A DNA stretch of 26,100 nt from Chloroflexota bacterium (GCA_013153375.1 JAADEN010000198.1:1-26100), one strand, 5' to 3'. Shown: positions 1 to 20,260, numbered from the stretch's first letter. The notes: a model not told the origin generated them from the sequence alone. Program-made: numbers and translations.

Positions 1-3000
1 CCATCACCGTGCGCAAGGTCGGATCGGCCTGTTTCAGTTGGTCGTAGGGCACGACCAGCACCCGCGGCTCGGCGCGCAGACGGGCGAAGGGCGTGCCCTC
101 GGTGGCGGGCAGGCCGAAGGGCTGCCATTCCGCGCCCGGCGCGTCCGCGGAGCGGGACGCCGCGGCCACCAGACGCACGACTTCGCGCACGGGGTCGTAG
201 ATCAAGATGCCGCCGTGCATGGCGTCGAACACGGTGCGCAAACGCACGATGGCCTCGCGCACCAGGGTCTGGAAGTCGGTGTAGCGGGAGATGGCCACGG
301 TGAAGTCGTACAGAAGTTGCAGTTGGGCCGAGCGACGCTGCACCTGTTCCAGCAGGCGCAGGTTGGAGAGCAAACTGCCCACGGCCGCGGCCGCGGTGTG
401 CACCAGGCCCCAGAAGTCTTCGCTATACGCATTGGCCCGAGCGTGCCGAAAAGCCACGACGCCCAAAGGCTCATCGCCGTACACGATGGGCACCACCAGC
501 ACGGCCGAACGGGCCTGCATGTGTTGGTCGCGCCAATGCAGGGTGTTGAACCACAGCGCGCCTTGATTGAGGAAGGCCCACACGACGGGATGCTCGGTAT
601 CGTCCAAGCGCACGGCCTCGGGCCAAGTCTCCCGCATCTCGGGATCGTGCCGTTCGGCTACGCGCACCAAGCGGTAAGGATCCTCTTCGTCCGACAAGTA
701 GAACGCGACGGCCTGGGGATGCTCCAATTCGTACAGGGCCTGGACGACCACATCCAGCGCCTCTTGCACCGACGCGGCCGCGGTGGCCTGCGCCAGGGCG
801 GCCTGCAAACGCTGCTGCTCGCCCAGCAGCACCCGCAGCCGGGCCACCAGGCGCGCGTTGAGCAAGGCCACGCCCAAGGAGTCCACCAGGAGGCGCAAGA
901 CGGTAATGTCGGCCTCCAAAAAGGCCCGCGGCCGTTCGGCGTGCAGGTCCAACACGCCGAACAGTTGCTCGCCCAACAAGATGGGCAGGACCAGGCGCGA
1001 GCCGCCCGGCGGCACGGGCGCGCTGTCGGCGTACGCTTGCATGGCCTCGGGCGTGTTGAGGAGCACGGGCTCCCGACGGCGCGCGGCGACGGCCAAAGGA
1101 TCCTCGGACCGCAAACTCACCTGATGGGCCTTGGGAGTGAGCAGCGCCTCCGCCTGATCGCCGGCCGCGGCGTGGGCTTCCAGTTGCAGTTGGTTGGCCT
1201 GATAGACATACAAGACCGCCCGCCCCAGGGGGAAACGCTCCAGCAGGGCCCGCACGAACTCGCGCAACAAGGTCTCTTCGTCCCAGGTGCGCAAGGTGCG
1301 GCCCAGTTCCACCGCGGCTTGCAGCCACGCGGTGCGCCGCTGGGCCACATAGAACAAGCGGGCGCTTTCCAGGGCCAGGCCCAGGCGGTCGGCCAGGTCG
1401 CGCAACATCTGGCGCTCGGCTTCGTTCCAGGGTTCGGCGCGGCGCAAGTGCAGCACCGCGATGGGTTGTTCGCGCACCGCGATGGGCAATCGCAGTTCGT
1501 GCAAATCGGGCTCGCTGGCCGGCACCGTGGCCTGGGCCGTGGGCGGCAGGGCTTCGAACTCGCCCCGCGCGGTGCGATGGAAGACCTGGGCCGGAGCGAC
1601 GCGCAGGAATTCCTCCCACCCGCGGCGGGACAGTTGCCGCTGCACCCAATGCAGTTCGTCCAGGGCGCGTTCCATGCGCTGGAGCAAGAACGCGTTGTCC
1701 AACGCGACGGCCAGTTGGTCCGCGACGACGCGCAGGGTGGTCACATCCTCAGGCGTGAAGGCGTTGGGCTGGGTGCTTTGAATGTCCAGGACGCCCAGGA
1801 TGCGGCCGCCCACCCGCAACGGCAGGGCCATTTCGGAGCGGGTCAACGCGAGTTCGGGAGGCCGCACATAGTGCGGGTCCTCCTCGACATCCAGCACGAT
1901 GCGCGGGTTGCCCGTGCGGGCGACGAAGCCGACGACGCCCTCCTGGCCGACGCGCAGCCGGTGATGGCGCTCCAAGAGGCGTTGGCCGCCCTCGCTGCTG
2001 GCGGCGCGCAACTCCATCCACTCGCCCGTCTCGTCGAGCAGGAAGATGCCCACATGGTAGAAGCCGAAACGCTCGGCGATCAGGCGGGCGGTGCGCTCCA
2101 AAAGGAGGTCCGGCGAGCGCAACGAGGTGAGCAGGCGGGCCACATCGGCCGCGGCCTGAATCTGGGCCACCCGGCGCTGCAACGCGTAGGTGCGCTCGGC
2201 CACCCGCTGCTCCAGGGTGAGTTGTGAGGCCTGCACCCGCTCGGCCATGACATTGAAGACCCGCCGCAGATAGGTCACCTCGTCCTCGGCCCGCTCGTCC
2301 ACTTCCAACCGGTAGTTGTAATCGCCCTCCGCGAAACGCAGCACGCCCTCGGCCGTGTCTTCCAGAGGGCGGATGATGCGGCGGACCACGAAGCGGGCGA
2401 AGAGCCAAACCAGGATGAGGGACACCAGCGCGGTCATCGCGGGCTGAAACAGAATGCGGCTCAGGGCCCGCAACATGCGCTGCAGGGTGACATCACGCCG
2501 CGCCTCGAAGCGCTGCAGCAGAAAACGCTGGGTGAGGTGATATTCGTTGTACACATCGAAGAAGCGCCGAATCAAGGCGTTCGCGTCGTTCCAGCGGCCA
2601 TGATTGACCGCCTGGGTGATCTCCTGAATCAAGCGATTGATCTCGCGCAACAGGGCCCACGAACGGGCCAGGGGCTGCAACAGGGGATCGTCGGGAGGCA
2701 GGGCGTCGAGGAAGGCCTCCAACTCGCGGCGGTTCGATTCCAGCGCGCTGTGCAGCGCCACCAACTGCTCGCTCCACAAGATCTGCTGGGAGCGCGTCAC
2801 CTCGGGATCGTCCAGAGAGGCTTGCACATCGCGCAGCACATGGCCCGCGCGTTCGATCAAGGCGATGGTCTCGTTGGTCAGGAGCAAGGGCTCGATGTTC
2901 TTGGAAGTGCGGAGCACGAGGGTGCGCAGGCGGAACACCTGATAGCCCACCACCACGCCCAACAGCACCACGACCAGGGTGATGGCCAAGGCGAAATGCC

Positions 3001-3064
3001 GCACCGTGCGGCGCAGCACCTGGCGCGGCTGAGGTACGGTCAAGGGACGCTCGTCCAGGGTCAT
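1..3064 (-). CDS. Membrane sensor C, partial (C-terminus beyond left edge, >=1021 aa): TM - helical extracytoplasmic domain - TM - HAMP - GAF - half-GAF - further GAF repeats
   Basis: Not in ORF track. Manual translation from ATG at 3064 (RBS GGAGGTGA, ATGA overlap with upstream stop) stays open to position 1. Begins MTLDERPLTVPQPRQVLRRTVRHFALAITLVVVLLGVVVGYQ. TM2 ILFQPAMTALVSLILVWLFARFVV. HAMP IIRPLEDTAEGVLRFAEGDYNYRLEVDERAEDEVTYLRRVFNVMAERV. GAF FGFYHVGIFLLDE...TRSEMALPLRVGGRILGVLDIQSTQPNAFTPED. Later GAF-type strands LVLPILLGEQLFGVLDL and LVVPIVYGDEPLGVVAF. Confidence 0.9.
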   Translation of the reverse strand, partial: MTLDERPLTVPQPRQVLRRTVRHFALAITLVVVLLGVVVGYQVFRLRTLVLRTSKNIEPLLLTNETIALIERAGHVLRDVQASLDDPEVTRSQQILWSEQLVALHSALESNRRELEAFLDALPPDDPLLQPLARSWALLREINRLIQEITQAVNHGRWNDANALIRRFFDVYNEYHLTQRFLLQRFEARRDVTLQRMLRALSRILFQPAMTALVSLILVWLFARFVVRRIIRPLEDTAEGVLRFAEGDYNYRLEVDERAEDEVTYLRRVFNVMAERVQASQLTLEQRVAERTYALQRRVAQIQAAADVARLLTSLRSPDLLLERTARLIAERFGFYHVGIFLLDETGEWMELRAASSEGGQRLLERHHRLRVGQEGVVGFVARTGNPRIVLDVEEDPHYVRPPELALTRSEMALPLRVGGRILGVLDIQSTQPNAFTPEDVTTLRVVADQLAVALDNAFLLQRMERALDELHWVQRQLSRRGWEEFLRVAPAQVFHRTARGEFEALPPTAQATVPASEPDLHELRLPIAVREQPIAVLHLRRAEPWNEAERQMLRDLADRLGLALESARLFYVAQRRTAWLQAAVELGRTLRTWDEETLLREFVRALLERFPLGRAVLYVYQANQLQLEAHAAAGDQAEALLTPKAHQVSLRSEDPLAVAARRREPVLLNTPEAMQAYADSAPVPPGGSRLVLPILLGEQLFGVLDLHAERPRAFLEADITVLRLLVDSLGVALLNARLVARLRVLLGEQQRLQAALAQATAAASVQEALDVVVQALYELEHPQAVAFYLSDEEDPYRLVRVAERHDPEMRETWPEAVRLDDTEHPVVWAFLNQGALWFNTLHWRDQHMQARSAVLVVPIVYGDEPLGVVAFRHARANAYSEDFWGLVHTAAAAVGSLLSNLRLLEQVQRRSAQLQLLYDFTVAISRYTDFQTLVREAIVRLRTVFDAMHGGILIYDPVREVVRLVAAASRSADAPGAEWQPFGLPATEGTPFARLRAEPRVLVVPYDQLKQADPTLRTVM

Positions 3065-4773
3065 GCCGCATCACCTCCCGCCGAGGGCGGGGCGCTCTCG
3101 GAATCTTCCCCGGCGACCTCGTCGTGACCACCGCCGAAGACATCCAAAACCAGCCAGGCTTCTTGAACCTGGAAGGCCTCGCTCAGGCCTTCCAACGCGG
3201 TGCGGGCCAACAGTTCGAAGTCGAGGGCCGAAGCGAAACGGGACGCGAGTTCGTTTTGGATCTCCTCGCGATGCGCGTATTGCTGCACTTCGTCGAGCAG
3301 GCGGGCCACCATGAGGTGGTTGGTCAGCAGGGCGATCATGCCCTCCAGCAACTCGGCCTCGCCCTCCTGCCAGGGCCGCGCGCTGACCACCCGCACCTCG
3401 CCGATCTTCTGGCTGTACAGCCGAATCGGGAAGACCAGGGGCGTGGTCGGCTCCTCGCCGCCGCGCAAGAGATCGGTGCCGCCCGTCGCGGACGCGTCGC
3501 GGCGCACGACCAGGCCCTGGGTCAACTCGCCCCAGGTGCGGCCCAGCAGACGCTGCTGCAACGCCTCGATCTCGCGCAGTTGATTTTGCAGCCGCTGCAC
3601 CATGAGCACATTCGACAGGGCCAGGGCCACGCTGTTGGCCAGGGTCTGAAAAGTGCGCAGGTCTTCCTCGTCGAACGCGTCGGCCCGATCGGATTGGATG
3701 GTCATCGCGCCCAAGACCTCGCCGCGCGCGACCAGGGGCAAAGCCAGTTCCGAGCGCGTGTAGGGCAGATACGGGTTCTCGTAGTGGGTGGGGTCTTGCT
3801 GCACATTCAGCGCCACCCGAGGTTCCCGGTGGGTGATGGCCCAGGCGATCATGGAGGTGCCGCCCAACGGCAGCCGATACCCCTCGGCCACCATGCGCTG
3901 GCCGGCCTGCCCGCTGCCGGCCCGCAGGACCGCGAACTCGAAGTTCTCGTCCACCAGGAAGATGCCCACATAATACAGGCCAAACTGGCGCTGAATCTGC
4001 TCGACGACCTCTTCCATCAACTGCTTGGGGTCGGAGATGGTGCCCAAGGTGTTGACGATCTCGCTCGCGGCCCGAATCTGGCGCACCCGACGCCGCAGCA
4101 GCCGCTCCCGGTCGCTCAACCGTTGGCGCTCCTGCTCCAGAATGCGCGTCAACTGCACCGTGTCTTCCAGGGTGATCTCGAACCGCTTCTGGATGAAATG
4201 CAACAAGCCCACGATGGCGATGCTGACGATCACGAACGCGAGACCGGCGTAGATCCACTGGGTGGGGCCCAACAGGATGTGTTCGGGCACACCGGCCAGG
4301 CGTGACAGGGTCCAGCCGCGCTCCAACACCAGGTAACTGGTGGCGAAGTACAGTCCAATGGCGAAGAGCACATTGAAGACCAGCGCCCAGCCTGTGAGAA
4401 AGACCGCGCCGGCCAAAATGGCGAACACGAAGGACAGGTTGGCCTCGCTCAAATCGCCGTAGAACAGGGCCGCGTACACGGCCATGAGATATACCATGCC
4501 CAGCAAGAAGGCCACCCGCCACGAATACGGCACGGGCAGCAACGCCCGTCCCCAACTCAAAAGAAAGGTCGCGGTCAGCAGCCCCAGATAGATCCACCGC
4601 AAAATCGGGAAGTTCCAAAAGCGCCACAAGTAAGCGGCGAACAGCACGGGCAGCGCCAGGCCAGCCAGCGTCAAAAAAGTAGCGAGCAGACGCTCACGAT
4701 ACAGTTGCATCTGCTGGCTAAAAGTCGCGGTCGAATAAGGCGCGCCGTCCCGGCTCAAGCGCGGATAGGTCAT
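3061..4773 (-). CDS. Membrane sensor B (570 aa): about 6 TM input region, coiled coil, GAF, half-GAF, C-terminal GAF-like stub; no output domain seen
   Basis: ORF track. Hydrophobic segments aa ~28-195. GAF FGLYYVGIFLVDE...TRSELALPLVARGEVLGAMTIQSDRADAFDEED. No H-box, GGDEF, EAL or HD motif seen. ATGA overlaps at both ends. Confidence 0.9.
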   Translation of the reverse strand: MTYPRLSRDGAPYSTATFSQQMQLYRERLLATFLTLAGLALPVLFAAYLWRFWNFPILRWIYLGLLTATFLLSWGRALLPVPYSWRVAFLLGMVYLMAVYAALFYGDLSEANLSFVFAILAGAVFLTGWALVFNVLFAIGLYFATSYLVLERGWTLSRLAGVPEHILLGPTQWIYAGLAFVIVSIAIVGLLHFIQKRFEITLEDTVQLTRILEQERQRLSDRERLLRRRVRQIRAASEIVNTLGTISDPKQLMEEVVEQIQRQFGLYYVGIFLVDENFEFAVLRAGSGQAGQRMVAEGYRLPLGGTSMIAWAITHREPRVALNVQQDPTHYENPYLPYTRSELALPLVARGEVLGAMTIQSDRADAFDEEDLRTFQTLANSVALALSNVLMVQRLQNQLREIEALQQRLLGRTWGELTQGLVVRRDASATGGTDLLRGGEEPTTPLVFPIRLYSQKIGEVRVVSARPWQEGEAELLEGMIALLTNHLMVARLLDEVQQYAHREEIQNELASRFASALDFELLARTALEGLSEAFQVQEAWLVLDVFGGGHDEVAGEDSESAPPSAGGDAA

Positions 4774-7700
4774 TCCTCCTGCTCCTGAGAAGCGTCCCCG
4801 TCGGAGGGCGCGGGCTCCGTCGCGGAGAAGAGTTCAATTTCCACCTGATACGCCTCGAACAGGCGCTGAATCTCGGCCGCGCTGAACTCCAGCATGTTGC
4901 GCACATCGGTCAGACCGGCCAGACGCTGGGCAAAAGTGCGCAACGACTGCTCGCGCTCGATGCGCCGCCGCAAGCGCCCTTCCTGCTGGATGGCGTACAT
5001 CACACCGGCCAGGCCCTGGCTCAAAGTGAAGAGGTAAGAGCGATGCTCTTCCGAAAAGGCGCGCGGGCGCTCCCACTGCACCAAACCGATGACGCCCAGC
5101 CGCTGACGCCCCAAAACCACAGGCACGCCCAGCCATGATTCGGGGATGCGGGTCGCGACCCGGACGGCCTTGCCGATTTGGGCGATGACCTTGTGCTTGT
5201 CGCTCAGCAAGAGCGGCTGTCCGCGCTCGGCCACCTGTTGGATGAGCGCCTGTTCGGCCGGGGTCACGGTCGTGTGATAATACCGCTGCCCATAAGGGTA
5301 CACGAAGGTGTAGGCCGGGTTGCCGCCGCGGTACGAAGCCACGAAGAAGTCGGCCTCGGGCAAATGTTTTTGCAGCAGATCCCAGGCCCGCAGGTAAAGG
5401 TGCCCTTCGGAGGGCGCTTCGGGCGCGTACTCCAGAATCTTCTGCACCACTTCCCACACCGAGAGGCGCTGCTGCATGTCCACATAGAGGAAAGCCCAGC
5501 CCACCAACTCGGTGAACAACTGCTCTCGGGCCCGATCCAGCGGCATTTCGCTCTCGCCGCTGCGGGTGCCGCGGGCCCAGACCGCGAAGAGACGCCCTTG
5601 CGGGTCGCGCACGGGGTACAGGCCCAGGGTCTGCCAATTGTAGCGCCGCGCCAGCGCCGCGATCCCCAGCCCCTCGCCCTCTTCCACTACCAAATGGGTC
5701 GGCCCTTCGCTGACCAGGGAGAGCAGATTCCGCACCGACGGCGTGGTCTGCTCTTGCTCCTGCTGCGGATAGGCCACCGACCACACATCGGTCAACTCGG
5801 GCACGGGCACCAGCAAAATCCCTTCGGCCTGGGCCTTGGTCAGGCATTCCACCAGCGCGGGGATCAAATAGGAACTGTGGCTCAGGGTGGGCAGACGCTG
5901 CAACAGGCAGGACATGACCCGTTGCTTTTCTGCCTCCAAAGCCTGACCGCGCTGCAGGTGCACATATTCGAGGACCAGAGACAACTGGCGGGCCAGCAAG
6001 CGCAGCGCGAAGCGATCGTACTCGCCCGGCAAAGTGGGGTCCACGCCGCCGACGAAGAGCACCCCCAGCAGGCGGCGCGGCGTGGTCAGCGGCACGCCCA
6101 CCATCCAGGTCAACGGCGGCGGCAGGCGCAAGGACTGGCCCTCTTGGTTGGACCACATCCGCATGTCCAAGGCGCGGCCCACCTCCGAGGCCAAATGCGG
6201 CTCGAAGGAGCGCAGGGCCAGGTTGACGGCCTGAGGCAGCCGCGAGACCCGTCCCGCCGGCTGCCAGCCCTGGTCGGGCGCGTGCCACAAGCGCAGCGAC
6301 AGGTACGCAAAGCGCGGGAAGCGTTCGCTCATCCGCTGCAGGATGGTCTGCAGCACCTGGGACGCGTCCGGCCCGCGCTCCAGCGCGACGGTGGCCATGG
6401 TCACGACCAACTGCACCTGCTGGGTGCGCAGGTTCAACTCGCGCTCCATGGTAGCGTAAGTCTCCTGGAGTTGGTCGGCCAGGTCGTTGAAAGTGTAGGC
6501 CAGGAGGGCCATCTCGTCGTTGCCCACCACCTCCGCGCGGCGATCCCAGCGGCCCTGGGCGAAGGCCTCGGCCACGCTCACCAGATCCTGCACCTGGCGC
6601 AGCAGCCGCCGCCCGAAGAGCACGGCCACGCCCAAAGTCAGCGCGAGCAACGCAGCCCAAACCAAAAGCCGCAAGCGGAGCAGTTCCAACACCCCCGCGA
6701 CCGCGGCCTGCTCGGGCATGGTCACCACCAAAGCCGCTTCCAAAGGATCCACCCAGCCGGCCAGGCCCACAATTCCGGGCAGGTCCACCCACCACAGGGG
6801 GAAGGAGGTTTGCACATCGGTGTGGGTGTAAGGGACCAGACGCTGCACCGGCCCCAGCCCCCAGCGGGCCAGCAGGGCGTAGAGCCCGCGATAACGGCCC
6901 AACAAGACCGTGTGCTGCGGCTTCGAGCGCAGCGAGGCCACCACATGGCTCAGTTGCGGCCACGGCGTGGGCCGCAGGGTCTGCATGGAAGCGTCCCAGG
7001 TATAGACTGTGCCGTCGGAGGTGGCGAACGCGGCCCGGCCCTGGGGCAGCCAACGGGTCATGCGCACCAGGGTCTTCTGGATCATCAGGTCCGACGAAAT
7101 GCCCACCAGCACGCCCCGAAAACGGCCCTGCGCGTCGTAAAGGGGATACGCGCTGGCGACGGCCAACGCGTCGTCCGTGGGGCGGGTCTGCGGCACGGGA
7201 TAGACCCAATGCTGGGCCTTGCGCGCCTGCAGCGTCTCCCAATGGGCCGCCAGGGAGGGGCCGAAAGGCACCTGATCCAGCGAGCGGCCCTCCCAGTCGG
7301 TCTGAGTCGCGACCAACACCCGCCGGTCAGGGGTGACCAACGCGAAGTCAATGTAGAGCGGCGCGCCCACCTCGATGCGGGAGCGCTCGAAAAGGCGGTC
7401 GAAGAGGGTCAGGCGGGCGTTGGCGAAGCGGCGGCTCTGGGTGGACGCGGTCCACAGGGTGTGCAGCGCCTCTTGCACATCCTGGGTGTTGAGGGCCACA
7501 TCCATGCGCGCGCTGCGCTGGACCATCCACTCGTTGAATTCCATGAAGGCCGAGTCCAGCACCAACTCTTCGCGGCGCAGGTTCAATTGCACGGCCTCTT
7601 CGTAGGAACGGTAGTAGAACCAGATGCCCTCGATGGTCAACGGCAGCAGGATGCTGACCAGCAGCAACGCCACCAGGCGCAGCACCAAACGCCGCCGGAA

Positions 7701-7871
7701 GCGTCGCCGGGGGCGTCCAGACGCGCGCGCCTCGGCCGCGTCGCTCGGGCCCGACGCGGGTTCCTCGTCAAACGCCAGATCCGCGAAAGCCTCGGTGTCG
7801 GCCGGAGGCACCGGCGGCACCGCCTCGGGATCACGGCTTTCGGGATCAGGAGGAACAGCGGGCATACTCAT
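4770..7871 (-). CDS. Membrane sensor A (~1033 aa): TM - Cache-like extracytoplasmic domain - TM - HAMP - three GAF-like domains - C-terminal GAF-like stub; no output domain seen
   Basis: ORF track gives 4770..7880 (GTG). ATG at 7871 preferred because the GTG lies inside the GAGGTG RBS. Cache-like strands DFALVTPDRRVLVAT and AYPLYDAQGRFRGVLVG. HAMP QVQDLVSVAEAFAQGRWDRRAEVVGNDEMALLAYTFNDLADQL. GAF motifs MVGVPLTTPRRLLGVLFV and SWLGVPVVLGRQRLGVIGL...RAFSEEH. Confidence 0.88.
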   Translation of the reverse strand: MSMPAVPPDPESRDPEAVPPVPPADTEAFADLAFDEEPASGPSDAAEARASGRPRRRFRRRLVLRLVALLLVSILLPLTIEGIWFYYRSYEEAVQLNLRREELVLDSAFMEFNEWMVQRSARMDVALNTQDVQEALHTLWTASTQSRRFANARLTLFDRLFERSRIEVGAPLYIDFALVTPDRRVLVATQTDWEGRSLDQVPFGPSLAAHWETLQARKAQHWVYPVPQTRPTDDALAVASAYPLYDAQGRFRGVLVGISSDLMIQKTLVRMTRWLPQGRAAFATSDGTVYTWDASMQTLRPTPWPQLSHVVASLRSKPQHTVLLGRYRGLYALLARWGLGPVQRLVPYTHTDVQTSFPLWWVDLPGIVGLAGWVDPLEAALVVTMPEQAAVAGVLELLRLRLLVWAALLALTLGVAVLFGRRLLRQVQDLVSVAEAFAQGRWDRRAEVVGNDEMALLAYTFNDLADQLQETYATMERELNLRTQQVQLVVTMATVALERGPDASQVLQTILQRMSERFPRFAYLSLRLWHAPDQGWQPAGRVSRLPQAVNLALRSFEPHLASEVGRALDMRMWSNQEGQSLRLPPPLTWMVGVPLTTPRRLLGVLFVGGVDPTLPGEYDRFALRLLARQLSLVLEYVHLQRGQALEAEKQRVMSCLLQRLPTLSHSSYLIPALVECLTKAQAEGILLVPVPELTDVWSVAYPQQEQEQTTPSVRNLLSLVSEGPTHLVVEEGEGLGIAALARRYNWQTLGLYPVRDPQGRLFAVWARGTRSGESEMPLDRAREQLFTELVGWAFLYVDMQQRLSVWEVVQKILEYAPEAPSEGHLYLRAWDLLQKHLPEADFFVASYRGGNPAYTFVYPYGQRYYHTTVTPAEQALIQQVAERGQPLLLSDKHKVIAQIGKAVRVATRIPESWLGVPVVLGRQRLGVIGLVQWERPRAFSEEHRSYLFTLSQGLAGVMYAIQQEGRLRRRIEREQSLRTFAQRLAGLTDVRNMLEFSAAEIQRLFEAYQVEIELFSATEPAPSDGDASQEQEE

Positions 7872-7890
7872 GCCGTACACCTCACCCGCA

Positions 7891-7909
7891 CAAACGGGGA
7901 CGAACCCCG
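7891..7909 (-). terminator. Weak intrinsic terminator or attenuator-like hairpin between RR2 and sensor A
   Basis: Minus strand reads CGGGG-TTCGT-CCCCG followed by TTTGT. 5-bp GC stem with a short U tract. Confidence 0.4.
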
Positions 7910-7932
7910 ACCGTCAGCACGCCGGAAGCCCG

Positions 7933-8367
7933 TCACAATTCCCACACCGCTTCGCCGGCCAAGATGCGCCGAATCTGCTCCGGGAAGCGGTCAGGGTCCA
8001 GGGGTTTGCCGATGAAACCGTCAAACCCGGCCGCGCGCGCCTTGCGCATCTGCTCCTGGCTGGCCTCCGCGGTCACCGCGACCACGGGCACATCCTTGAG
8101 GTGCTCCGAAGCGCGGATCTTCTCCAGCGCCTCGTAGCCGCTCTCGTAGGGCAAGCGCAAATCCATGAGAATCAGATCCAGACGCGGCATGCGCCGGGCG
8201 AACTCGACCACCTCGTAGCCCGAGGTCTTCCACTTGGTCTCGATGCCGATAAAGCCCAGCATCCGGGCGATGAGGACGAAGTTGGCGACATTGTCTTCCA
8301 CCACCAAGACCAACGGTTTGGCCTCGGCATCGCTTTGGGTCGTGGCGGCCTGCGCGTCGAACCTCAT
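7933..8367 (-). CDS. Single-domain response regulator RR2 (CheY/DivK-like receiver, 144 aa)
   Basis: Acidic pocket VVEDN, phosphoacceptor LDLILMDLRLP, Thr in AVTA, Lys in FIGKP. No output domain. Confidence 0.95.
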   Translation of the reverse strand: MRFDAQAATTQSDAEAKPLVLVVEDNVANFVLIARMLGFIGIETKWKTSGYEVVEFARRMPRLDLILMDLRLPYESGYEALEKIRASEHLKDVPVVAVTAEASQEQMRKARAAGFDGFIGKPLDPDRFPEQIRRILAGEAVWEL

Positions 8368-8384
8368 GATAGGCGCTCTCCCCG

Positions 8385-8753
8385 CTACAAATAACGCCGC
8401 AATTGGGCGACGAAAGTATCCACATCAATGGGCTTGGTGATGTAGCCCACACACCCTGCGGCCGCACAGCGCTGCGGCGTATCGCGCAGCACATCCGCGG
8501 TCAACGCCACCACCGGGATGTCGCCGTAACGCGGGTGGGTGGTCAACTGATGGGTGAGGGTGAAGCCGTCAATGCCGGGCAAATGCAAGTCCATCAGAAT
8601 GAGGTCTGGGCGCTGCGTTTGCAGGATCGCCCACATCTGCTCGGCGTTGGCCGCCTCGAGCAGTTCGAAACCCTCGGCCATGAGCAAGCGCCGAATGAGC
8701 ATGCGATTGTCCGCGTTGTCCTCTACATATAAAACGCGCTTCTTTCCGGCCAC
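8385..8753 (-). CDS. Single-domain response regulator RR1 (CheY/DivK-like receiver, 122 aa)
   Basis: YVEDN, PDLILMDLHLPGIDG, IPVVALTA, YITKP. GTG start preceded by GAGGA. Confidence 0.95.
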   Translation of the reverse strand: MAGKKRVLYVEDNADNRMLIRRLLMAEGFELLEAANAEQMWAILQTQRPDLILMDLHLPGIDGFTLTHQLTTHPRYGDIPVVALTADVLRDTPQRCAAAGCVGYITKPIDVDTFVAQLRRYL

Positions 8754-8808: not shown

Positions 8809-8838
8809 ATCATAGCACAAAAGGCCCTATTTCGCCAA
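8809..8838 (-). promoter_or_regulatory. Putative sigma70-type promoter of the RR/sensor operon (extended -10)
   Basis: Minus strand TTGGCG-N18-TATGAT with TGn immediately before the -10 (TGCTATGAT), about 55 nt upstream of the RR1 start. Confidence 0.55.
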
Positions 8839-9109: not shown

Positions 9110-9136
9110 GGCCACCGAGCGGGGTCTTTTATTTTT
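9110..9136 (+). terminator. Terminator-like element inside the 5' leader of the ABC operon
   Basis: GGCC-A-CC-GAGC-GG-GGTC bulged 6-bp stem followed by TTTTATTTTT, 20 nt upstream of ATG 9156. Confidence 0.45.
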
Positions 9137-9155
9137 GCCTCTGGAGAGCGGCAAG

Positions 9156-10175
9156 ATGATCAAAGCGCGCGGCCTCACCAAATACTACGGTCGGCGTCTC
9201 GCCATCGACCACCTGACTTTCGAAGCCCACAAGGGAGAAATCGTGGGCTTTTTGGGTCCCAACGGCGCGGGCAAGACCACCACCATGCGCATCCTCACCG
9301 GCTACATGCCGCCGTCCGACGGCGACGCCTGGGTGGCGGGCTACCATGTGGTGGACGAGTCCCTGGAAGTGCGGCGTCGGGTGGGCTACCTGCCCGAAAA
9401 TGTCGCCCTCTACGACGACATGACCGTGTGGGACTACCTGCGCTTCATGGGCCAGTTGCGTCAGGTGCCCGACCTGGACGAGCGCATCGCGGAGGTGCTG
9501 GAGCGGGTCAACCTGCTGGAGCGCAGCGAGAGTTTCATCGGCAGCCTCTCCCGGGGCATGCGCCAGCGGGTAGGACTGGCCCAGGCCATCCTGCATCGGC
9601 CCGAAGTGCTCATCCTCGACGAACCCACCATGGGCCTGGATCCCGCGCAGCGGGTCGAGGTGCGGGACCTCATCCGCGAGATCGGCCAGGAGCACACGGT
9701 CATGCTCTCGACGCACATCCTCTCCGAAGCGCAGGAGTTGTGCGACCGGGTGCTCATCATCAACGAAGGCCGCATTCTGGCCGAGGACACGCCCGAAGAG
9801 CTGGAGCTGCGGCTGCGCGGCGCGCAGCGGGTGCGGCTGCAGGTGAGCGGCCCGGCCTCCGCGGCCGAGTTGCAAACCCGCCTGGCCGCGCTGCCCGGCG
9901 TGTTGCAGGTGCACGCCGCGGACGCGCAGCACCTGGAGGTGGAGCTCGCGCCCGACGCGGGGCGCGACCTGCGCCCTGTGCTGGCCCGCGCGGTGCTGGA
10001 TGCGGGCTACGACCTGCACGAGATGTGCACCGTCTCCCTCTCGCTGGAGGACATCTTCTTGCAACTCATCCGCGAAGAGGGCGCGAGCGACCAAGAGGCC
10101 GCGGCTGCGGAGCCCTCGGCCACCACCGAGGCCGCATCGTCCCATCCCGCGTCCGAAGCCGACGAGGAGGCCTGA
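9156..10175 (+). CDS. ABC transporter ATP-binding protein (GldA/DrrA-like)
   Basis: Walker A GPNGAGKTT, signature LSRGMRQR, Walker B VLILDEPT, H-loop LSTH. ATG at 9156 follows GGAGAG and is preferred over the track start at 9135. Confidence 0.95.
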   Translation: MIKARGLTKYYGRRLAIDHLTFEAHKGEIVGFLGPNGAGKTTTMRILTGYMPPSDGDAWVAGYHVVDESLEVRRRVGYLPENVALYDDMTVWDYLRFMGQLRQVPDLDERIAEVLERVNLLERSESFIGSLSRGMRQRVGLAQAILHRPEVLILDEPTMGLDPAQRVEVRDLIREIGQEHTVMLSTHILSEAQELCDRVLIINEGRILAEDTPEELELRLRGAQRVRLQVSGPASAAELQTRLAALPGVLQVHAADAQHLEVELAPDAGRDLRPVLARAVLDAGYDLHEMCTVSLSLEDIFLQLIREEGASDQEAAAAEPSATTEAASSHPASEADEEA

Positions 10176-10178
10176 CCC

Positions 10179-10925
10179 ATGCGCACGGTATGGATCATCG
10201 CCCGCCGGGAGTTCCGGCGCTATTTCACCAGCCCGGTCGGTTACCTGGTGTTGTTCCTGTATCTCTTCATCCTGGGGCTCATCGTCAACAACAGCCTGCA
10301 GCAGGCCTACGCGTTCAGCGTGTTCCAGGGGGCCCCGCCGCCGGGGGCCGACATCGTCATCGGCCCGATGCTCACCCTGCTGGTGTTCTCCATCCCCGCG
10401 CTGACCATGCGCCTGCTGGCCGAGGAGCAGGCCAGCGGCACCCTGGAGTTGCTCCTCACCGCGCCCGTGCGCGATTGGGAACTGGTGGTCGGCAAGTGGC
10501 TGGGCGCGTTCTTGTTCGTGGTGGTGCTGTTGGCGCTCACTCTGATCTATCCCCTGGCGCTGCACCTGCTCACCGAGCCGGGGCTGGACTGGGGGCCGGT
10601 CATCAGCGGCTACCTGGGCCTGCTGCTGGTCAGCGCGGCGCTGTTGGCCCTGGGCGTGGCCGTGTCCGCGTTGTTCCGCAGTCAGGTGGCCGCGTTCGTC
10701 GTCACCCTGGCCCTGTTCCTCTTCCTGTGGATGATCAGCAGCCTGGCCTCGGCCGGGAGCCCCAGCGAGGGCGTGCTGCGCTATCTGGATTTCGGCCATC
10801 ACTTCTACACCTCGTTCTTCCGCGGGGTCATTGACCTGCAAGGCGTGGTGTACTACCTCAGTGTGACCGCGTTCGGCCTGTTCGTCGGCACGGTCATCAT
10901 CGAAAGCCGGAGGTGGCGCGGATGA
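10179..10925 (+). CDS. ABC-2 type permease (GldF-like)
   Basis: IARREFRRYFTSPVGY, LTMRLLAEEQASGTLELLLTAPVRDWELVVGKWLG, about 6 TM helices, FGHHFYTSFFRGVIDL. Confidence 0.92.
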   Translation: MRTVWIIARREFRRYFTSPVGYLVLFLYLFILGLIVNNSLQQAYAFSVFQGAPPPGADIVIGPMLTLLVFSIPALTMRLLAEEQASGTLELLLTAPVRDWELVVGKWLGAFLFVVVLLALTLIYPLALHLLTEPGLDWGPVISGYLGLLLVSAALLALGVAVSALFRSQVAAFVVTLALFLFLWMISSLASAGSPSEGVLRYLDFGHHFYTSFFRGVIDLQGVVYYLSVTAFGLFVGTVIIESRRWRG

Positions 10926-12493
10926 ACCCGACGAAAACCTGGCGCACTTGGCTTCCGTGGGTGGCGTTGGGCCTGGCCGTGGTCGGCGCGCTGGTCGCGG
11001 CCGGCGCGTTCTTCATCCTACGGGCCTTCGACACCCCCGTGCGCGTCGGCCTGGCCGTGGCGCTGGTGGGCCTGGCCGCGTTCGTGTACCTGGAACCCGA
11101 GCGGGTGCGCCGCTGGCTCACCGGCCGAGAGGCCCGCTACGGCAGCAACGCGCTGGTGCTGTCCCTGGCCTTCATCGGCATCTTGGCCGCGCTCAACTAC
11201 CTGGCCAGCCTCTACCCCCAGCGCTGGGACCTCACCGAGGACCGCCGCAACACCCTGGCCCCTGAGATCCAGGAAGTGCTGCGGGCCCTGGACGAACCCG
11301 TGACCGCGTACGCGTTCTACTCGGCCAACATCAATCGGGACTACGCGCGCGAGGTCCTGGACAAATTCGCGCTGGCCAGCGAGGGCAAGTTCACCTACAA
11401 GTTCGTGGATCCCATCGCCAACCCCGCGCTGGCCCAGCAATACGGCGTCACCCGCGACGGCACGGTGGTGCTGGTCATGGGCGACCGCCACGAGCAGGTC
11501 CTCTTCCTCTCGGACGAGGAGATCGCCAACGCGCTGGCCCGTCTGATGCGGCCCGAGGAGCGGGTGGTGGTCTTCGTCACCGGCCACGGCGAAGGGGACA
11601 TCGAAACCCTGGGCGAAACGGGCTACTCCCTGCTCAAGGACGAACTCACCAACCGCAACTTCACCGTGCGCACCTGGAGCCTGCCCGCGGAAGGTTCGCT
11701 GCCCGAAGACGCGGATGTGGTCATCTTCGCGGGGCCGACCCAGCCCTTCACCGACAAGGAGCGCCAGGTCATCCAGGACTACCTGGCCAACGGCGGCAGC
11801 GTCATCTTCCTGTTCAACACTTCGGTGGAAGGCGCGGCCGAGCCCGACGCGGACCTGCAGGCCTACCTGGCCGACCAGTGGTTCGTCCAGGTGGACGACA
11901 CGGTGGTGGTGGACACCTCGTCGCCCCAACAGCCCCTCATTGCGGTCGGCATTCCCACCGCGCGGCACCCTGTGACCCAGAAGTTGGCCGGGCTGGTGGT
12001 GCTCTTCCCCGTGGCCCGCAGCGTGCGCGCGCTGGACGGCGCGCCCGCGACCCTCAGCGTCGAGGAACTGCTGCACACCACCGACCGCGCCTGGGCCGAG
12101 ACCGACCTGGCCGCGTTCACCACCTCCACGCCCGAGGGCGCGCAGGTGGCCTACGACGAAGGGGAAGATCTGCCCGGGCCCGTGCCGTTGGTGGTGGTGG
12201 CCCACGACACCCTCACCGACGCCCGCATCGTGGTCGTCGGCGACGCGGACTTCGCCCGCAACGGCTTCTACCAGGCTTACGGCAACGGCCTGTTGCTGCT
12301 CGACGCGGTGGACTGGGCCGCGGGTCAGGAGAACCTGATCACCATCACGCCCAAGCCGCAAACCCAGCGCTACCTCAAGCCCCTGGCCGGTTACGGCTTG
12401 AGCGCGCTGGCGCTGACATCCATCTGCTTGCTGCCCGGTGTGGTGCTGGTCATCGGCGGCGTGGTGTGGTTCCGTCGCCGCATGCGGAGGTGA
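10922..12493 (+). CDS. GldG-family ABC auxiliary component (ABC_transp_aux-like)
   Basis: N-terminal TMs, RWDLTEDRRNTLAPE, FVDP motif, VVFVTGHGEGD, IFAGP, RIVVVGDADF...GNGLLLLDAVDW, C-terminal TM. ATG 10922 overlaps the permease stop (ATGA). Confidence 0.88.
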   Translation: MNPTKTWRTWLPWVALGLAVVGALVAAGAFFILRAFDTPVRVGLAVALVGLAAFVYLEPERVRRWLTGREARYGSNALVLSLAFIGILAALNYLASLYPQRWDLTEDRRNTLAPEIQEVLRALDEPVTAYAFYSANINRDYAREVLDKFALASEGKFTYKFVDPIANPALAQQYGVTRDGTVVLVMGDRHEQVLFLSDEEIANALARLMRPEERVVVFVTGHGEGDIETLGETGYSLLKDELTNRNFTVRTWSLPAEGSLPEDADVVIFAGPTQPFTDKERQVIQDYLANGGSVIFLFNTSVEGAAEPDADLQAYLADQWFVQVDDTVVVDTSSPQQPLIAVGIPTARHPVTQKLAGLVVLFPVARSVRALDGAPATLSVEELLHTTDRAWAETDLAAFTTSTPEGAQVAYDEGEDLPGPVPLVVVAHDTLTDARIVVVGDADFARNGFYQAYGNGLLLLDAVDWAAGQENLITITPKPQTQRYLKPLAGYGLSALALTSICLLPGVVLVIGGVVWFRRRMRR

Positions 12494-12499
12494 GGCGCC

Positions 12500-13138
12500 A
12501 TGATTCGCCGCAGCACATGGATGGTCATTGCCTTGTTTGCGGTCCTGGCCGGGCTGGCCTGGTGGGCCCGGGAACAGAAACAGGCCGCGCCCGAAGATCA
12601 GGCCGAAAGCGAACCCACGGCCACGCCCATGCCGCGGCTGCTGCCCGACCTGGAGCCCGCGGATGTGGAGCGCATCGTGCTCGAAGAGCCGGCCACGGGA
12701 CGGCGGGTCGTGCTGGTGCGCGTGCAGGCCACGCCCACGGCCGAGGCCGAGGGCACACCCGCCCCGCCCGAGGCCGCGGAGCCCCAATGGCGCGTGGAAG
12801 AGCCCGCGGACGCCGAGCCGCCCGAGGCCTGGCGCGTGAACGGCGCGCTGGAAAGCCTGGTCTATGCCCGCATTCTGGCCACCCTGCCCGCGGATACCGA
12901 CCCGGCCACCGTGGGCCTGGCCGGCCCGGCTCAGCGCATCCTCCTGCAAACCCGGGATGGCCGCACCATAACCTTGTGGATCGGCGTATCCACGCCGCTG
13001 CAAAATGGTTACTACTTACGGGTGGACGAAAAGCCCGACATCGTGGCGGTAGGACAATATGGCATTGGTACGCTGTGGGAACTGCTGGACGAGATCGCGC
13101 CTCTAACTGCGACGCCCACGCCGTCACCAACGCCCTAA
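12500..13138 (+). CDS. DUF4340-like membrane-anchored extracytoplasmic protein
   Basis: N-terminal anchor (TWMVIALFAVLAGLAWW), DVERIVLE...WRV...GL..P...ITLWIG..TP..NGYYLRV pattern. Fourth gene of the Gld-type module. Confidence 0.7.
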   Translation: MIRRSTWMVIALFAVLAGLAWWAREQKQAAPEDQAESEPTATPMPRLLPDLEPADVERIVLEEPATGRRVVLVRVQATPTAEAEGTPAPPEAAEPQWRVEEPADAEPPEAWRVNGALESLVYARILATLPADTDPATVGLAGPAQRILLQTRDGRTITLWIGVSTPLQNGYYLRVDEKPDIVAVGQYGIGTLWELLDEIAPLTATPTPSPTP

Positions 13139-13216: not shown

Positions 13217-13298
13217 AGAAGCGAGGGCCCGCCCCAGGGTCGTCCTTGCGCCCGGGCGCCCCGCGAGTTCGATTCTTTTGAGACGAGGGCAAGGCACG

Positions 13299-14501
13299 AT
13301 GATTGGCGAAGAATTCCTTTATGAAGAAGAATTCTCGGCCGTGGCTCAGTTGGTCGAACTGGGCCGCGAAAAAGGGTATGTGACTTACGACGACATCCTC
13401 CAATTCTTCCCCAAGATCGAAGACGGGGATCTGGATCAGCTGGAGGAGATTTTCGCCGCGCTGATCGGCGCGGGCATCGCATATCTGGAAGACGAACCCG
13501 GCGAAGAGCCCAGCGACGAAGAGTTGCTGGAAGAAGAGGAAGAAACCCCCAAGCCGGCCAAACCCGCGGACGACGAGGACTACCTGGCCAACATTGACAC
13601 CGATGACATGATCGGCCTCTACCTCAAAGAGGTGGGCCGCATCCCCTTGCTGACCGCGGAACAAGAAGTGGAACTGGCCAAGCGCATCGAGGCCGGGCGG
13701 ATGGCGCGCGCCGAGTTGGCTCGGGGCAAGGTCAGCCCCAAACGCCGCGAAGAACTGCGGCGCATCATCGAAGACGGCTGGCGGGCCCGCGAACAACTCA
13801 TCATCGCCAACTCCCGCCTGGTCATCAGCGTGGCCAAGAAGTACATCGGCCGGGGCGTGCCCTTCCTGGACCTCATCCAGGAGGGCAACATCGGCCTCAT
13901 TCGGGCCACCAAGAAGTTCGACTATCGCCGCGGGCACAAGTTCAGCACCTACGCCACCTGGTGGATCCGTCAGGCCGTCACCCGGGCCATCGCGGACCAG
14001 GGCCGCACCATCCGCGTGCCCGTGCACATGGGCGACCAGATCAACAAACTGCTGCGCACCCAGCACCAGTTGACCCAGCGCCTGGGCCGCGAACCCACCA
14101 TCGAGGAACTGGCCAAGGAGTTGGGCATTCCGCCCAAGAAGGTGGAGTACATGATCCAGGTGGCCCGGCATCCCCTCTCGCTGGAGATGCCCACCGACGA
14201 CGACGAGAAGTCGGTGCTGGGCGACTTCATCAAGGACGAAGACGCGCAGGCCCCTGACGAGAACGCCATCCAGGCCCTGCTGCGGGAGCACCTGGAAAAA
14301 CTGCTCAACACCCTGCCCCCGCGCGAGGTGCGCATTCTGCAGTTGCGCTACGGCTTGCTCGACGGCAAGCCCTACACCCTGGAAGAAGTGGGGCGCAAGA
14401 TGGGCATCACCCGCGAGCGGGTGCGGCAAATCGAAGCCCAGGCCCTGGCCCGGCTGCGTAAACCCGAGATTCAACAGCAACTGCGGGAATATCTGAAGTG
14501 A
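13299..14501 (+). CDS. rpoD: RNA polymerase sigma70 factor, RpoD/SigA family (possibly a paralog of the housekeeping sigma)
   Basis: Region 1.1 ([12 protein letters not shown]), 1.2 ([21 protein letters not shown]), 2 ([12 protein letters not shown]...[54 protein letters not shown]), 4.2 ([20 protein letters not shown]). ATG 13299 preferred over the track start at 13278. Confidence 0.9.
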
Positions 14502-14507
14502 GACGCC

Positions 14508-14533
14508 GGGGGCGATGCGGGCGCATCGCCCCC
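14508..14533. repeat. Perfect inverted repeat between the sigma gene and maf
   Basis: GGGGGCGATGCG-GG-CGCATCGCCCCC, 12-bp arms, no U tract on either strand. Confidence 0.8.
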
Positions 14534-14549
14534 AACGCTTGTTCCGACC

Positions 14550-15203
14550 ATGTCCACCGTAGCCTCCTGTCGTCTGCTCTTGGCCTCGGGCTCCCCGCGG
14601 CGCCGCGAACTGGTGCGCTGGCTGGGTTACCCAGTGCGCGTCCAGGTGCCTCAGGTGGATGAAAGCCTCCGCGCGGGCGAGGCGCCCGCCGCGTATGTGA
14701 CGCGCCTGGCCCGGGCCAAGGCCCTCGCCCTCGCGCCCCAGGCCGCGGCCGACGAAATCGTCCTGGCCGCGGACACGGTGGTGGTGGACCGCGGCCGCAT
14801 CCTGGGCAAACCTCGAGACGCCGCGCACGCGGCCGCGATGCTGCGCGCGTTGCGCGGCCGCGCCCATCAGGTGCTCACGGGCTTCGCGCTGCTCTGGCCG
14901 GCCCGCGACCGCGCCCACAGCGAGGTCGTCACGAGCACCGTGCACATGCGGGACCTCAGCGACGCGGAAATCCAGGCCTACATCGCCAGCCGCGATCCGC
15001 TGGACAAAGCCGGCGCTTACGCGGTCCAAAACACCACCTTTCGGCCCGTCGCGCGGGTGGAGGGCTGCTTCGCCAATGTGGTGGGTTTGCCCGTGTGCGC
15101 GGTCGCGCGGGCCCTCATGGCCTGGGGCTGCCCGCGCGTGCGCGGCATCGTCCCACGCTGCGCGCGGGCCTTCGGGTACAATTGTGCCAGCGGTATTCCT
15201 TAA
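14550..15203 (+). CDS. maf: Maf-family nucleoside triphosphate pyrophosphatase (YhdE type)
   Basis: LLLASGSPRRREL, IVLAADTVV, ILGKP, DKAGAYAVQ, NVVGLP. The R/V/Q positions match the YhdE subfamily. Confidence 0.93.
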   Translation: MSTVASCRLLLASGSPRRRELVRWLGYPVRVQVPQVDESLRAGEAPAAYVTRLARAKALALAPQAAADEIVLAADTVVVDRGRILGKPRDAAHAAAMLRALRGRAHQVLTGFALLWPARDRAHSEVVTSTVHMRDLSDAEIQAYIASRDPLDKAGAYAVQNTTFRPVARVEGCFANVVGLPVCAVARALMAWGCPRVRGIVPRCARAFGYNCASGIP

Positions 15204-15272
15204 GAAAAGGAACTTCGCCAGGCAGCCCGGACCTCTGCGCAGGTACGCGCTGCCCCTGGAACGGATGGAGCC

Positions 15273-18003: not shown

Positions 18004-19371
18004 TCAGGGGGACGCCTCCGGGCGGGCCGGGTCGGACGGGGGCGGCTCGGCTTCGTCCGCCCACCAGGCCTGCAGCCGCTGGGCGATGATGCGCTCGTAG
18101 CCCTGGTCCGAGGGCGTGTAGAAGCGCGCCCTTTGCGCCTCGGGCGGCCGGTACGCCTGGCGCACGAAGTGCCCCGGCTCGGCGTGGGGGTAGCGATAGC
18201 CCTGACCGTGGCCCAAAGCCTCCCGATCCCGATGCCCATCCCGCAAGTGCAGGGGCACCGGGCCGACGCCATGCGCCCGGACGAAATCCTGCGCCGCGAA
18301 GAGGGCCTTGGTGCTGTTGGACTTGGGCGCGGTGGCCAGGTAGAGGGTGGCCTGGGCCAGATGATACCGCCCTTCGGGCAGGCCCACCCGGTCGAAAGCC
18401 TGGGCCGCGGCCACGGTGTGCACCAGGGCCTGAGGGTCGGCCAGGCCGATGTCCTCCGCGGCCAGGATGAGCAAACGGCGCAGGATGAAGCGCGGGTCTT
18501 CGCCAGCCTCCAACATCACGGCCAGCCAGTAGAGGGCCGCGTCGGGGTCCGAGCCGCGCACCGACTTGATGAACGCGGAGATGGTGTCGTAGTGCGCATC
18601 GCCCTTTTTGTCGTAGCGCACCGCGCGGCGTTGCAGCACGGCCTGCATCCAGTCCTTGTCCACCCGGCGGACGCCCTCCGCGTCGGCCGCCGCGCTCTCC
18701 ACGGCCAACTCCAGCGCGTTGAGCGCGCGCCGCGCGTCGCCGCCCGCGGCCTGGGCCAGGAAGTCCAGCGCCTCGTCGGTCACCACCACGGCCTGGCCGC
18801 CGTAGCCCCGCGGGTCGGTGAGGGCCCGCGTCAACACCTGACGCACCTGCTCCGGGGTGAGCGGGTGCAGTTGAAACACCTGCGAGCGCGACACCAGCGC
18901 GGGAATGACCTCGAAGTAGGGATTTTCGGTGGTCGCGCCGATGAAGATGAGGGTGCCGTCTTCCACATAGGGCAGCAGCGCGTCCTGCTGGGCCTTGTTC
19001 CAGCGATGCACCTCGTCCACGAAGAGCACCGTGCGCCGGCCGAAGTACTTGCGCTGCTCGCGCGCGGTCTCGATGGCCCGCACCAGGTCGGCCTTGCCGG
19101 CCAGCACCGCGGAGAGGGGGATGAAGTGGGCATCCCACGAGCGGGCCAGAATGTGGGCCAGGGTGGTCTTGCCCGTGCCCGGCGGCCCCCACAAGATGAG
19201 GGACGGAAACCCGCGGCCCTGCTCCACCGCCCGGCGCAAGGGCTTGCCCGGCCCGACCAGGTGCTCCTGCCCCACGAATTCGTCCAGGGTGCGGGGCCGC
19301 AGGCGCGCGGCCAGGGGCATGTGCTGCGCGGCTTCTTGCTGTTGGGCGTGGTCGAACAAATCGTGGGTCAT
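18004..19371 (-). CDS. rarA: Replication-associated recombination protein A (RarA/MgsA AAA+ ATPase)
   Basis: PLAARLRPRTLDEFVGQEHL, Walker A WGPPGTGKTT, LFVDEVHRWNKAQQD, GATTENP, HYDTISAFIKSVRGSDPDAA, SNS motif. ATG 19371 follows AGGAGG. Confidence 0.96.
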   Translation of the reverse strand: MTHDLFDHAQQQEAAQHMPLAARLRPRTLDEFVGQEHLVGPGKPLRRAVEQGRGFPSLILWGPPGTGKTTLAHILARSWDAHFIPLSAVLAGKADLVRAIETAREQRKYFGRRTVLFVDEVHRWNKAQQDALLPYVEDGTLIFIGATTENPYFEVIPALVSRSQVFQLHPLTPEQVRQVLTRALTDPRGYGGQAVVVTDEALDFLAQAAGGDARRALNALELAVESAAADAEGVRRVDKDWMQAVLQRRAVRYDKKGDAHYDTISAFIKSVRGSDPDAALYWLAVMLEAGEDPRFILRRLLILAAEDIGLADPQALVHTVAAAQAFDRVGLPEGRYHLAQATLYLATAPKSNSTKALFAAQDFVRAHGVGPVPLHLRDGHRDREALGHGQGYRYPHAEPGHFVRQAYRPPEAQRARFYTPSDQGYERIIAQRLQAWWADEAEPPPSDPARPEASP

Positions 19372-19495
19372 GGGACCTCCTACCAAAACGACATGGCCGC
19401 GCCAGTCCGAACGCGTCTTCCATTCTACCCCACATCCCAGGCAACCGGCCTCGACGCGCCATCATCCACGAGGCGGCCCCTCGCCGGGGTTCCTC

Positions 19496-19526
19496 CAAAA
19501 ACAAAGAGGGCCCCGCTGGGGCCCTC
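19496..19526 (-). terminator. Intrinsic terminator of the liv operon
   Basis: GAGGGCCCC-N3-GGGGCCCTC (19506-19526) followed on the minus strand by TTTGTTTTT. Confidence 0.85.
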
Positions 19527-19546
19527 CCGTCGCCACAAAGGCAGGG

Positions 19547-20260
<714 letters not shown>

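Follow-up and report, generated by a model that had tools for sequence, protein, structure and literature searches.

Two-component signalling usually relies on one sensor kinase per pathway. The known design in which many receptors report to one kinase is the chemotaxis array, built of methyl-accepting chemotaxis proteins (MCP), CheW, CheA and CheY, and such arrays are positioned by ParA-like ATPases, as with ParC/ParP in Vibrio and PpfA/TlpT in Rhodobacter sphaeroides. In the NreA-NreB-NreC system of Staphylococcus carnosus the GAF-only co-sensor NreA modulates a sensor kinase, and in Pseudomonas GacS, RetS and LadS form a multikinase network. Here we describe the first 26.1 kb of a contig (G000:C30:1-26100; the whole of this stretch is called the window) from a metagenome-derived, 79%-complete genome of a Chloroflexota bacterium (1.72 Mb in 240 contigs). 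Positions 1-8753 of the window hold five co-oriented minus-strand open reading frames (ORFs) for two receivers, RR1 and RR2, and three membrane sensors, A, B and C. On balance, we lean towards reading them as the upstream half of a conserved Anaerolineales gene cluster in which kinase-less sensors converge on one histidine kinase, D, encoded further downstream. No description of this cluster was found in literature searches.

The order RR1-RR2-A-B-C, together with the two ATGA overlaps joining the stop codon of A to the start codon of B and that of B to that of C, had been stated in an earlier note on this DNA and was seen again in the minus-strand sequence (Table 1). The same note described A and B, as well as the visible part of C, as free of any output domain. 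Output domains were sought with Pfam at E<=0.1, with NCBIfam, and with AlphaFold2 models run through Foldseek against the PDB; all of these were negative for A and B, and Pfam was negative for the first 1021 residues of C. HisKA, HATPase_c, GGDEF, EAL, HD, PP2C and MCPsignal gave no Pfam match in A, B or C at this threshold, and the NCBIfam matches to the three proteins were confined to their HAMP and GAF parts.

The input modules of the three sensors differ from one another: a dCache domain in A, a multi-pass membrane domain in B and a helical periplasmic domain in C. Sensor A is composed of a transmembrane segment, a double-Cache-like periplasmic domain, a second transmembrane segment, a HAMP domain, three GAF domains, a C-terminal stub (described below) and an acidic tail. 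Of these parts Pfam recognized the HAMP domain (E-value 4.9e-10), one clear GAF domain and, weakly, dCache, while the AlphaFold2 model (18 sequences; predicted local distance difference test score (pLDDT) 79) reproduced the membrane, dCache-like and HAMP arrangement followed by GAF folds at residues ~479-620, 669-780 and 825-944, two terminal helices and a disordered tail. Searched with Foldseek against the PDB, this model retrieved tandem-GAF (PDE5, PDE6), phytochrome and dCache chemoreceptor matches only, and no catalytic fold. The first GAF domain of A (residues ~479-620) is strongly degenerate in the genus of the window and in one sister genus; the A-type proteins of other genera carry a canonical domain there, scoring 138-167 bits. 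Because the cytoplasmic part of A diverges fast, a word-based search with it reached genus-level relatives only, and the A-type orthologues of other genera were taken from syntenic loci.

Sensor B starts with five to six membrane helices and continues with a long helix, one GAF domain, a hairpin-plus-helix module, the C-terminal stub and an acidic tail. Pfam detected the GAF domain only, and HAMP is absent, such that the architecture of a HAMP-containing transmembrane receptor is found in A and C and not in B. The AlphaFold2 model of B (36-sequence alignment, pLDDT 79) showed the membrane helices, long helix and GAF domain, then a disordered loop, a beta hairpin, two terminal helices and a disordered tail, and its Foldseek matches in the PDB were GAF domains only. 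Scoring of 8000 candidates yielded 382 homologues of B at E<=0.001. Among 120 listed, the full-length relatives are ~535-575 amino acids (aa) long and GAF-only, most of them carrying PF20969 (MASE11); B itself has no PF20969 match at E<=0.1, though its homologue clusters bear the name GAF/MASE11.

The visible part of sensor C comprises a transmembrane segment, a helical periplasmic domain, a second transmembrane segment, a HAMP domain (E-value 7.2e-09) and four GAF domains, the HAMP and GAF domains being those found by Pfam. Full-length orthologues in same-genus genomes are open frames of 1174-1178 aa with 71-77% identity, and the one in genome G002 (1176 aa, 77% identical) has HAMP and five GAF domains, no output domain and a stub at its end. 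Since this complete orthologue also lacks an output domain, all three sensors, rather than two of the three as the note had counted, are kinase-less and without enzymatic or DNA-binding output. Sensor lengths are kept to within a few residues in the genus, with intact frames. The idea of a bilin-binding photoreceptor, raised by the resemblance of the stub to cyanobacteriochrome (CBCR) GAF domains, was rejected, as no conserved Cys was evident in the translation of the first GAF domain of C.

Whatever the input domain, the sensors end alike. In all sensors examined the last GAF helix leads into a linker that carries the motif R-x-A-x-R-E; a helix-turn-helix-strand segment comes next, and the protein closes with a short tail that is mostly acidic. 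The stub covers ~45 residues and corresponds to the start of a GAF domain, from the linker helix through the first helix to the first strand. Its profile aligns with phytochrome/CBCR-type GAF domains (8w26, 6oap; E ~1e-20) at their junction and N-terminal helix/strand, and the sensors therefore stop just past the first strand of a would-be further GAF domain. A local hidden Markov model (HMM) of the stub scored 26-71 bits at sensor C-termini, including 57 bits at residues 1086-1131 of the C orthologue in G002, versus 4-21 bits at internal GAF starts, and never reached a sensor-level score on kinase D. The stub is present in 125 of the 136 kinase-less GAF ORFs of related clusters, with a median of 12 residues behind it; its conservation was seen in four families and is better than that of internal GAF starts. 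In the genome of the window, a strong stub was found in A and B only, and five ORFs in total carry the B-type GAF domain. Four-helix packing of the stub in a dimer is possible. A proposed homology of the stub to a DHp-like hairpin without its His was dropped, given that the profile search matched GAF N-termini strongly.

The kinase had been placed by the earlier note either at the unseen end of C or in the next gene, and neither location holds. The complete C orthologue ends without HisKA or HATPase, and the gene after C in G002 encodes a ParA/MinD-like ATPase (hereafter ParA) with the Walker A motif KGGVAKT in its translation; the kinase D is the gene after that. The ParA-like orthologue in genome G003 (L035:10459-11304) matched the NCBIfam model ParA_partition at 1.9e-29, which is below the model cutoff. 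Also in G002, an ORF of 245 aa lying between C and D was rejected as a gene, as its translation is Arg/Gly-rich without a Pfam match and the real gene is the ParA-like frame. In the genome of the window, contig C34 begins inside D and continues into the following gene, E, and is almost certainly the continuation of the contig that carries the window. D on this contig has HisKA (1.8e-20) and HATPase_c (5.4e-32), and the two domains occur together in all orthologous clusters as well, while A, B and C have neither. Complete in G002, D is a soluble protein of 1223 aa in which degenerate GAF domains and two good ones accompany HisKA, HATPase_c and a weak receiver-like domain.

The N-terminus of D carries two further elements. 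One is an orphan strand-strand-helix element that matches the last strands and helix of a GAF domain and scores like the element preceding the sensor stubs. The other is a Lys/Arg-rich peptide followed by RL(D/E)xLF, which a strict pattern found in 49 of the 58 D proteins from ParA-containing loci, most of the other nine starting basic too. This basic run is absent from D of the ParA-less loci L069, L075, L096 and L116, and such co-variation of the basic tag with ParA supports a contact between ParA and the kinase. In many loci, the start of D overlaps the stop of ParA by ~35-80 nucleotides.

Gene E, behind D, encodes a zinc ribbon, a threonine-synthase-like pyridoxal phosphate (PLP) domain and a canonical receiver, with the PLP lysine motif and the receiver residues forming invariant alignment columns. 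It scores below the threonine synthase cutoffs, both with the best NCBIfam model (265 bits versus 303) and with TIGR00260 (155.5 versus 167), and canonical thrC genes lie elsewhere in related genomes. E is a third ThrC-family paralogue with an added receiver. An EamA transporter gene follows E in 77 of 80 related loci, and E and EamA together look like a metabolite module under the control of phosphorylation. Full-length E occurred in 33 of 301 sampled genomes of the phylum. In many Anaerolineaceae loci (L046-L118), EamA is followed by a divergent, opposite-strand pair of genes, one for a GAF protein of ~530 aa and one for a kinase of ~870 aa; a further kinase, of ~410 aa, often comes next on that strand. 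The genus of the window lacks this arrangement, and there a PolX-type polymerase follows EamA.

A tblastn/blastp survey recovered 15 loci from 15 genomes, drawn from six genera within the family and from three further families of the order. Where contigs suffice, the order in this survey is RR1, RR2, kinase-less GAF proteins, ParA, D and E, co-oriented and with overlaps or very small gaps. RR1-RR2-A-B-C-ParA-D-E is complete in loci from four genera, and in two more genera the contig stops short of the end of D. Throughout the family the sensor count is exactly three (types A, B and C), and in the three other families it is two to about nine. In a second survey, an alignment of E was used to scan species-representative genomes, giving more than 586 loci, of which 80 were kept. 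All but two of the kept loci are titled Anaerolineales, Anaerolineae, Chloroflexi/Chloroflexota or similar (78 of 80), the exceptions being one labelled Blastopirellula marina and one metagenome chromosome. Of the kept loci, 56 extend 9 kb or more upstream of E; all 56 have the kinase, 52 have ParA and 54 have one or more stub-ended sensors.

Sensors per cluster range from 0 to 12. The largest set comes from a complete 4.4-Mb Anaerolineales genome (G082), where 12 tandem stub-ended sensors stand between RR2 and ParA in a cluster of ~40 kb. At the other end, L081 consists of RR1-RR2-D-E with no sensor and no ParA, and L116, likewise ParA-less, has a single small stub protein; L069, L075, L096 and also G042 have sensors without ParA. 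Three outcomes that the earlier note had named as refuting its proposal did not arise: A and B gave no output domain in profile or fold searches, gene order is kept throughout the family and across the order, and the sensors are not shortened relatives of longer kinase fusions, given the GAF-only relatives of B and the prevalence of the stub end. As to its central proposal, that input-only sensors modulate one kinase, the output-less sensors beside one kinase in a conserved cluster agree with it, and the position it gave the kinase does not. Its further suggestion that A and B act through C by GAF/coiled-coil contacts is not favoured, because A, B and C share the same C-terminal stub, suggesting a common partner for each.

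Both receivers are canonical and single-domain, with Pfam Response_reg E-values of 2.2e-26 for RR1 and 2.8e-20 for RR2. The phospho-acceptor context LILMDL is found in the translations of both, and each has the acidic pocket, Asp, Thr/Ser and Lys of a two-component receiver; in the RR1 translation, the contexts of the acidic pocket, the phospho-acceptor Asp, the Thr and the Lys can be read directly. In other genera and families, too, the cluster opens with RR1, at ~50% identity. No protein of the cluster is better conserved than RR2, with 67-89% identity between genera and families.

The number of sensors differs between clusters, whereas RR1, RR2, D and E each remain at one copy, as would be expected if many inputs fed a single transmitter. 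The full cluster runs RR1, RR2, a variable set of sensors, the ParA-like ATPase, D, E and EamA, and in the reading towards which we lean, the sensors would be interchangeable input modules converging on D. The stub and the last GAF helix would provide their common contact surface, much like the conserved chemoreceptor tip in its binding of CheA and CheW. From D, phosphoryl groups would pass to RR1, RR2 and the receiver of E, the transfer to RR1 and RR2 being proposed from conserved linkage. The output would include control of a PLP enzyme, whose product, a small amino-acid-derived compound, would be moved by EamA, and the ParA-like ATPase would position or partition D via the Lys/Arg-rich N-terminal tag.

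Several observations weigh against this reading. Synteny and the shared stub are what suggest that many sensors serve one kinase, and AlphaFold2 monomers of A and B show the stub as two helices with a disordered end (pLDDT ~50-80). In the sensor-less locus L081, D keeps its N-terminal orphan GAF-like element, which is therefore not obviously the receptor of the stub. The ParA-less variants, on which the link between ParA and the basic tag of D depends, may represent few independent events. G261, a 6.35-Mb genome from a distant genus of the phylum, has the kinase directly upstream of E and no stub-ended sensors within 40 kb upstream. Finally, the end of C, the ParA gene and the start of D (a joint of ~1.4 kb) were sought in the genome of the window and not found, this segment being unassembled, and we infer their presence there from the same-genus genomes. 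The variant clusters (L081, L116, the ParA-less loci and G261) indicate that RR1, RR2, D and E (plus EamA) are the core, with sensors and ParA as add-ons. The cluster is best taken as two-component signalling with accessory sensors, with a substantial chance that its architecture is a distinct one.

The partner of the stub could also be sought outside D. The sensors might bypass the kinase and contact another member of the cluster, sequestering or releasing RR1 or RR2 or recruiting the ParA-like ATPase, or they might scaffold a membrane patch, with the stub contacting that partner instead. Their position directly behind RR1/RR2 and ahead of ParA would suit such a role, and ParA is never found in a cluster without sensors, as all 52 of the 52 ParA loci have stub sensors and the sensor-less L081 is also ParA-less. 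The unusual conservation of RR2 is likewise expected for a protein with several fixed partners. We nevertheless consider a bypass of D unlikely. Some clusters bear sensors and lack ParA (L069, L075, L096, L116 and G042), and the retention of RR1, RR2, D and E in L081 indicates a self-sufficient two-component core to which sensors were added on. Moreover, an architecture of HAMP, GAF and signalling helix is typical of transmitter-coupled receptors.

If the sensors do converge on D, the contact might take the form of split-GAF complementation, in which the stub of a sensor completes in trans an incomplete GAF-like element, for example the N-terminal orphan of D, to give a composite coupling domain. 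This mechanism would make sense of the stub being clearly the first part of a GAF domain while D always opens with an element like the last GAF strands and helix, one that scores like the pre-stub element of the sensors. Yet each sensor possesses its own GAF C-terminal element just upstream of the stub, making cis packing or dimer capping equally possible, and the stub and the orphan element together would still be without the middle of the GAF fold. Considering also that D retains the orphan element where sensors are missing and that AlphaFold2 leaves the stub strand unpacked, we regard complementation as improbable. Least credible of all is that A, B and C are functionless leftovers of histidine kinases, or of a single giant multi-GAF protein, that mutation has truncated, a notion invited by sensors that end inside an apparent GAF domain and by the degenerate first GAF domain of A in this genus, canonical as it is in other genera. 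Decay would hardly be expected to leave an identical truncation point in 125 of 136 ORFs, a stub conserved better than the internal GAF starts, intact frames whose lengths stay within a few residues in the genus, and a membrane module and start codon of its own for every sensor.

Returning to the convergence of sensors on D, we also propose, only tentatively and with doubt about the whole, a Che-independent array-like architecture. Kinase-less HAMP/GAF receptors (three here and up to 12 elsewhere) would dock by their stubs on one soluble kinase, and a ParA-like ATPase would position this kinase via a ParB-like basic tag. The endpoint would be phosphorylation control of a PLP enzyme and an exporter, i.e. 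regulated synthesis or release, by filamentous Anaerolineae, of a compound derived from an amino acid, and not transcription or motility.

Table 1. Coordinates of the features of the cluster; positions without a prefix are those of the window.
Feature	Position	Strand	Remarks
RR1	8385-8753	-	122 aa; stand-alone receiver
RR2	7933-8367	-	144 aa; stand-alone receiver with short N-terminal extension
Sensor A	4770-7880	-	1036 aa; alternative start is the ATG at 7871
Sensor B	3061-4773	-	570 aa
Sensor C	2-3064	-	first 1021 aa; frame open at contig end
ATGA overlap, A stop codon/B start codon	4770-4773	-	read in sequence
ATGA overlap, B stop codon/C start codon	3061-3064	-	read in sequence
C-terminal GAF stub of A	4830-4967	-	residues 972-1017; local stub HMM 43 bits; ends 19 residues before C-terminus
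C-terminal GAF stub of B	3145-3282	-	residues 498-543; local stub HMM 49 bits; ends 27 residues before C-terminus
Sigma-70-like promoter match	8809-8838	-	~55 nucleotides upstream of RR1; 9/12 hexamer positions plus TG extension
Own-genome downstream module on C34	L021:104-3550, 3641-5332, 5362-6309		G002 counterpart L022:5220-8151
D basic N-terminus region	L022:1509-1600		G002; likewise D orthologues of L039-L118
12-sensor cluster	L124 and L125 (G082:C1:1846600-1886400)		

The sigma-70-like promoter match upstream of RR1 is a possible start of the operon, as a consensus match alone. A scan for internal terminators gave fewer sites than shuffled sequence and hence no support for any. Divergent from RR1, an ABC-2 transporter operon (9135-13138, plus strand) encodes an ATPase, a permease, a GldG-like ABC_transp_aux protein and a DUF4340 protein, and resembles gliding-associated GldA/F/G sets. 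It is followed on the same strand (13278-17549) by a row of three genes, for a primary-type sigma-70 factor (regions 1.1 to 4), a Maf-like protein and a class B penicillin-binding protein with a MecA_N-like N-terminal domain, which are ordinary housekeeping context. A 512-aa ORF at 18133-19671 (plus strand) had no Pfam match at E<=0.001 and may be spurious, as high-GC DNA yields many false ORFs.

Should the stub prove to be a docking module, it would represent a new means by which GAF/HAMP receptors are coupled in trans to a kinase. It would also account for hundreds of database entries labelled just "GAF domain-containing protein", and would offer a handle on signalling in Anaerolineae, abundant filamentous bacteria of which many are known from metagenomes only.

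Among described systems, NreA resembles the sensors in being an output-less GAF protein thought to control a separate histidine kinase of the same operon. NreA is small, soluble and single-GAF, with one copy per system, whereas the sensors here are large membrane proteins (570-1176 aa) that carry one to five GAF domains, come in 3-12 copies and share a common stub. None of A, B and C is thus a small soluble single-GAF co-sensor, and unlike NreA, they have periplasmic or membrane inputs, with HAMP in A and C. The GacS/RetS/LadS network resembles the cluster in that several membrane sensors converge on one kinase and output pathway, there by direct sensor-to-sensor contacts. However, RetS and LadS keep transmitter domains (DHp, CA) and act through them, and A, B and C have none. 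In fold, the cytoplasmic parts of A and B best match the tandem-GAF modules of the phosphodiesterases PDE2, PDE5 and PDE6, of phytochromes and of cyanobacteriochromes. In those proteins the GAF chain is covalently joined to a catalytic or transmitter domain, while the sensor chain here stops after the first strand of the next GAF domain.

The cluster is not a chemosensory (Che) system, because MCPsignal and CheW (PF00015, PF01584) had no match in four genomes of the group, one of them complete (G000, G002, G010 and G082), in searches that detected the positive controls. Unlike Che arrays, it has no MCPsignal, CheW or CheA, and its receptors are HAMP/GAF chains that end in a GAF stub rather than in a helical hairpin tip. 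Its kinase is of the dimeric HisKA type, no methylation enzymes were seen among the cluster genes, and its output is probably a PLP enzyme plus a transporter rather than a motor. What the two share is a set of many output-less receptors with a conserved kinase-proximal end, one kinase and stand-alone CheY-like receivers, together with a variable number of receptors and a cluster-encoded ParA-like ATPase, whose probable client carries a basic N-terminal peptide. The closest functional analogy is a chemoreceptor array with ParA-like positioning. A second, unrelated class of receptors seems to use the logic of the array, in which variable output-less receptors with a common end are combined with one kinase, stand-alone receivers and a ParA-type ATPase.

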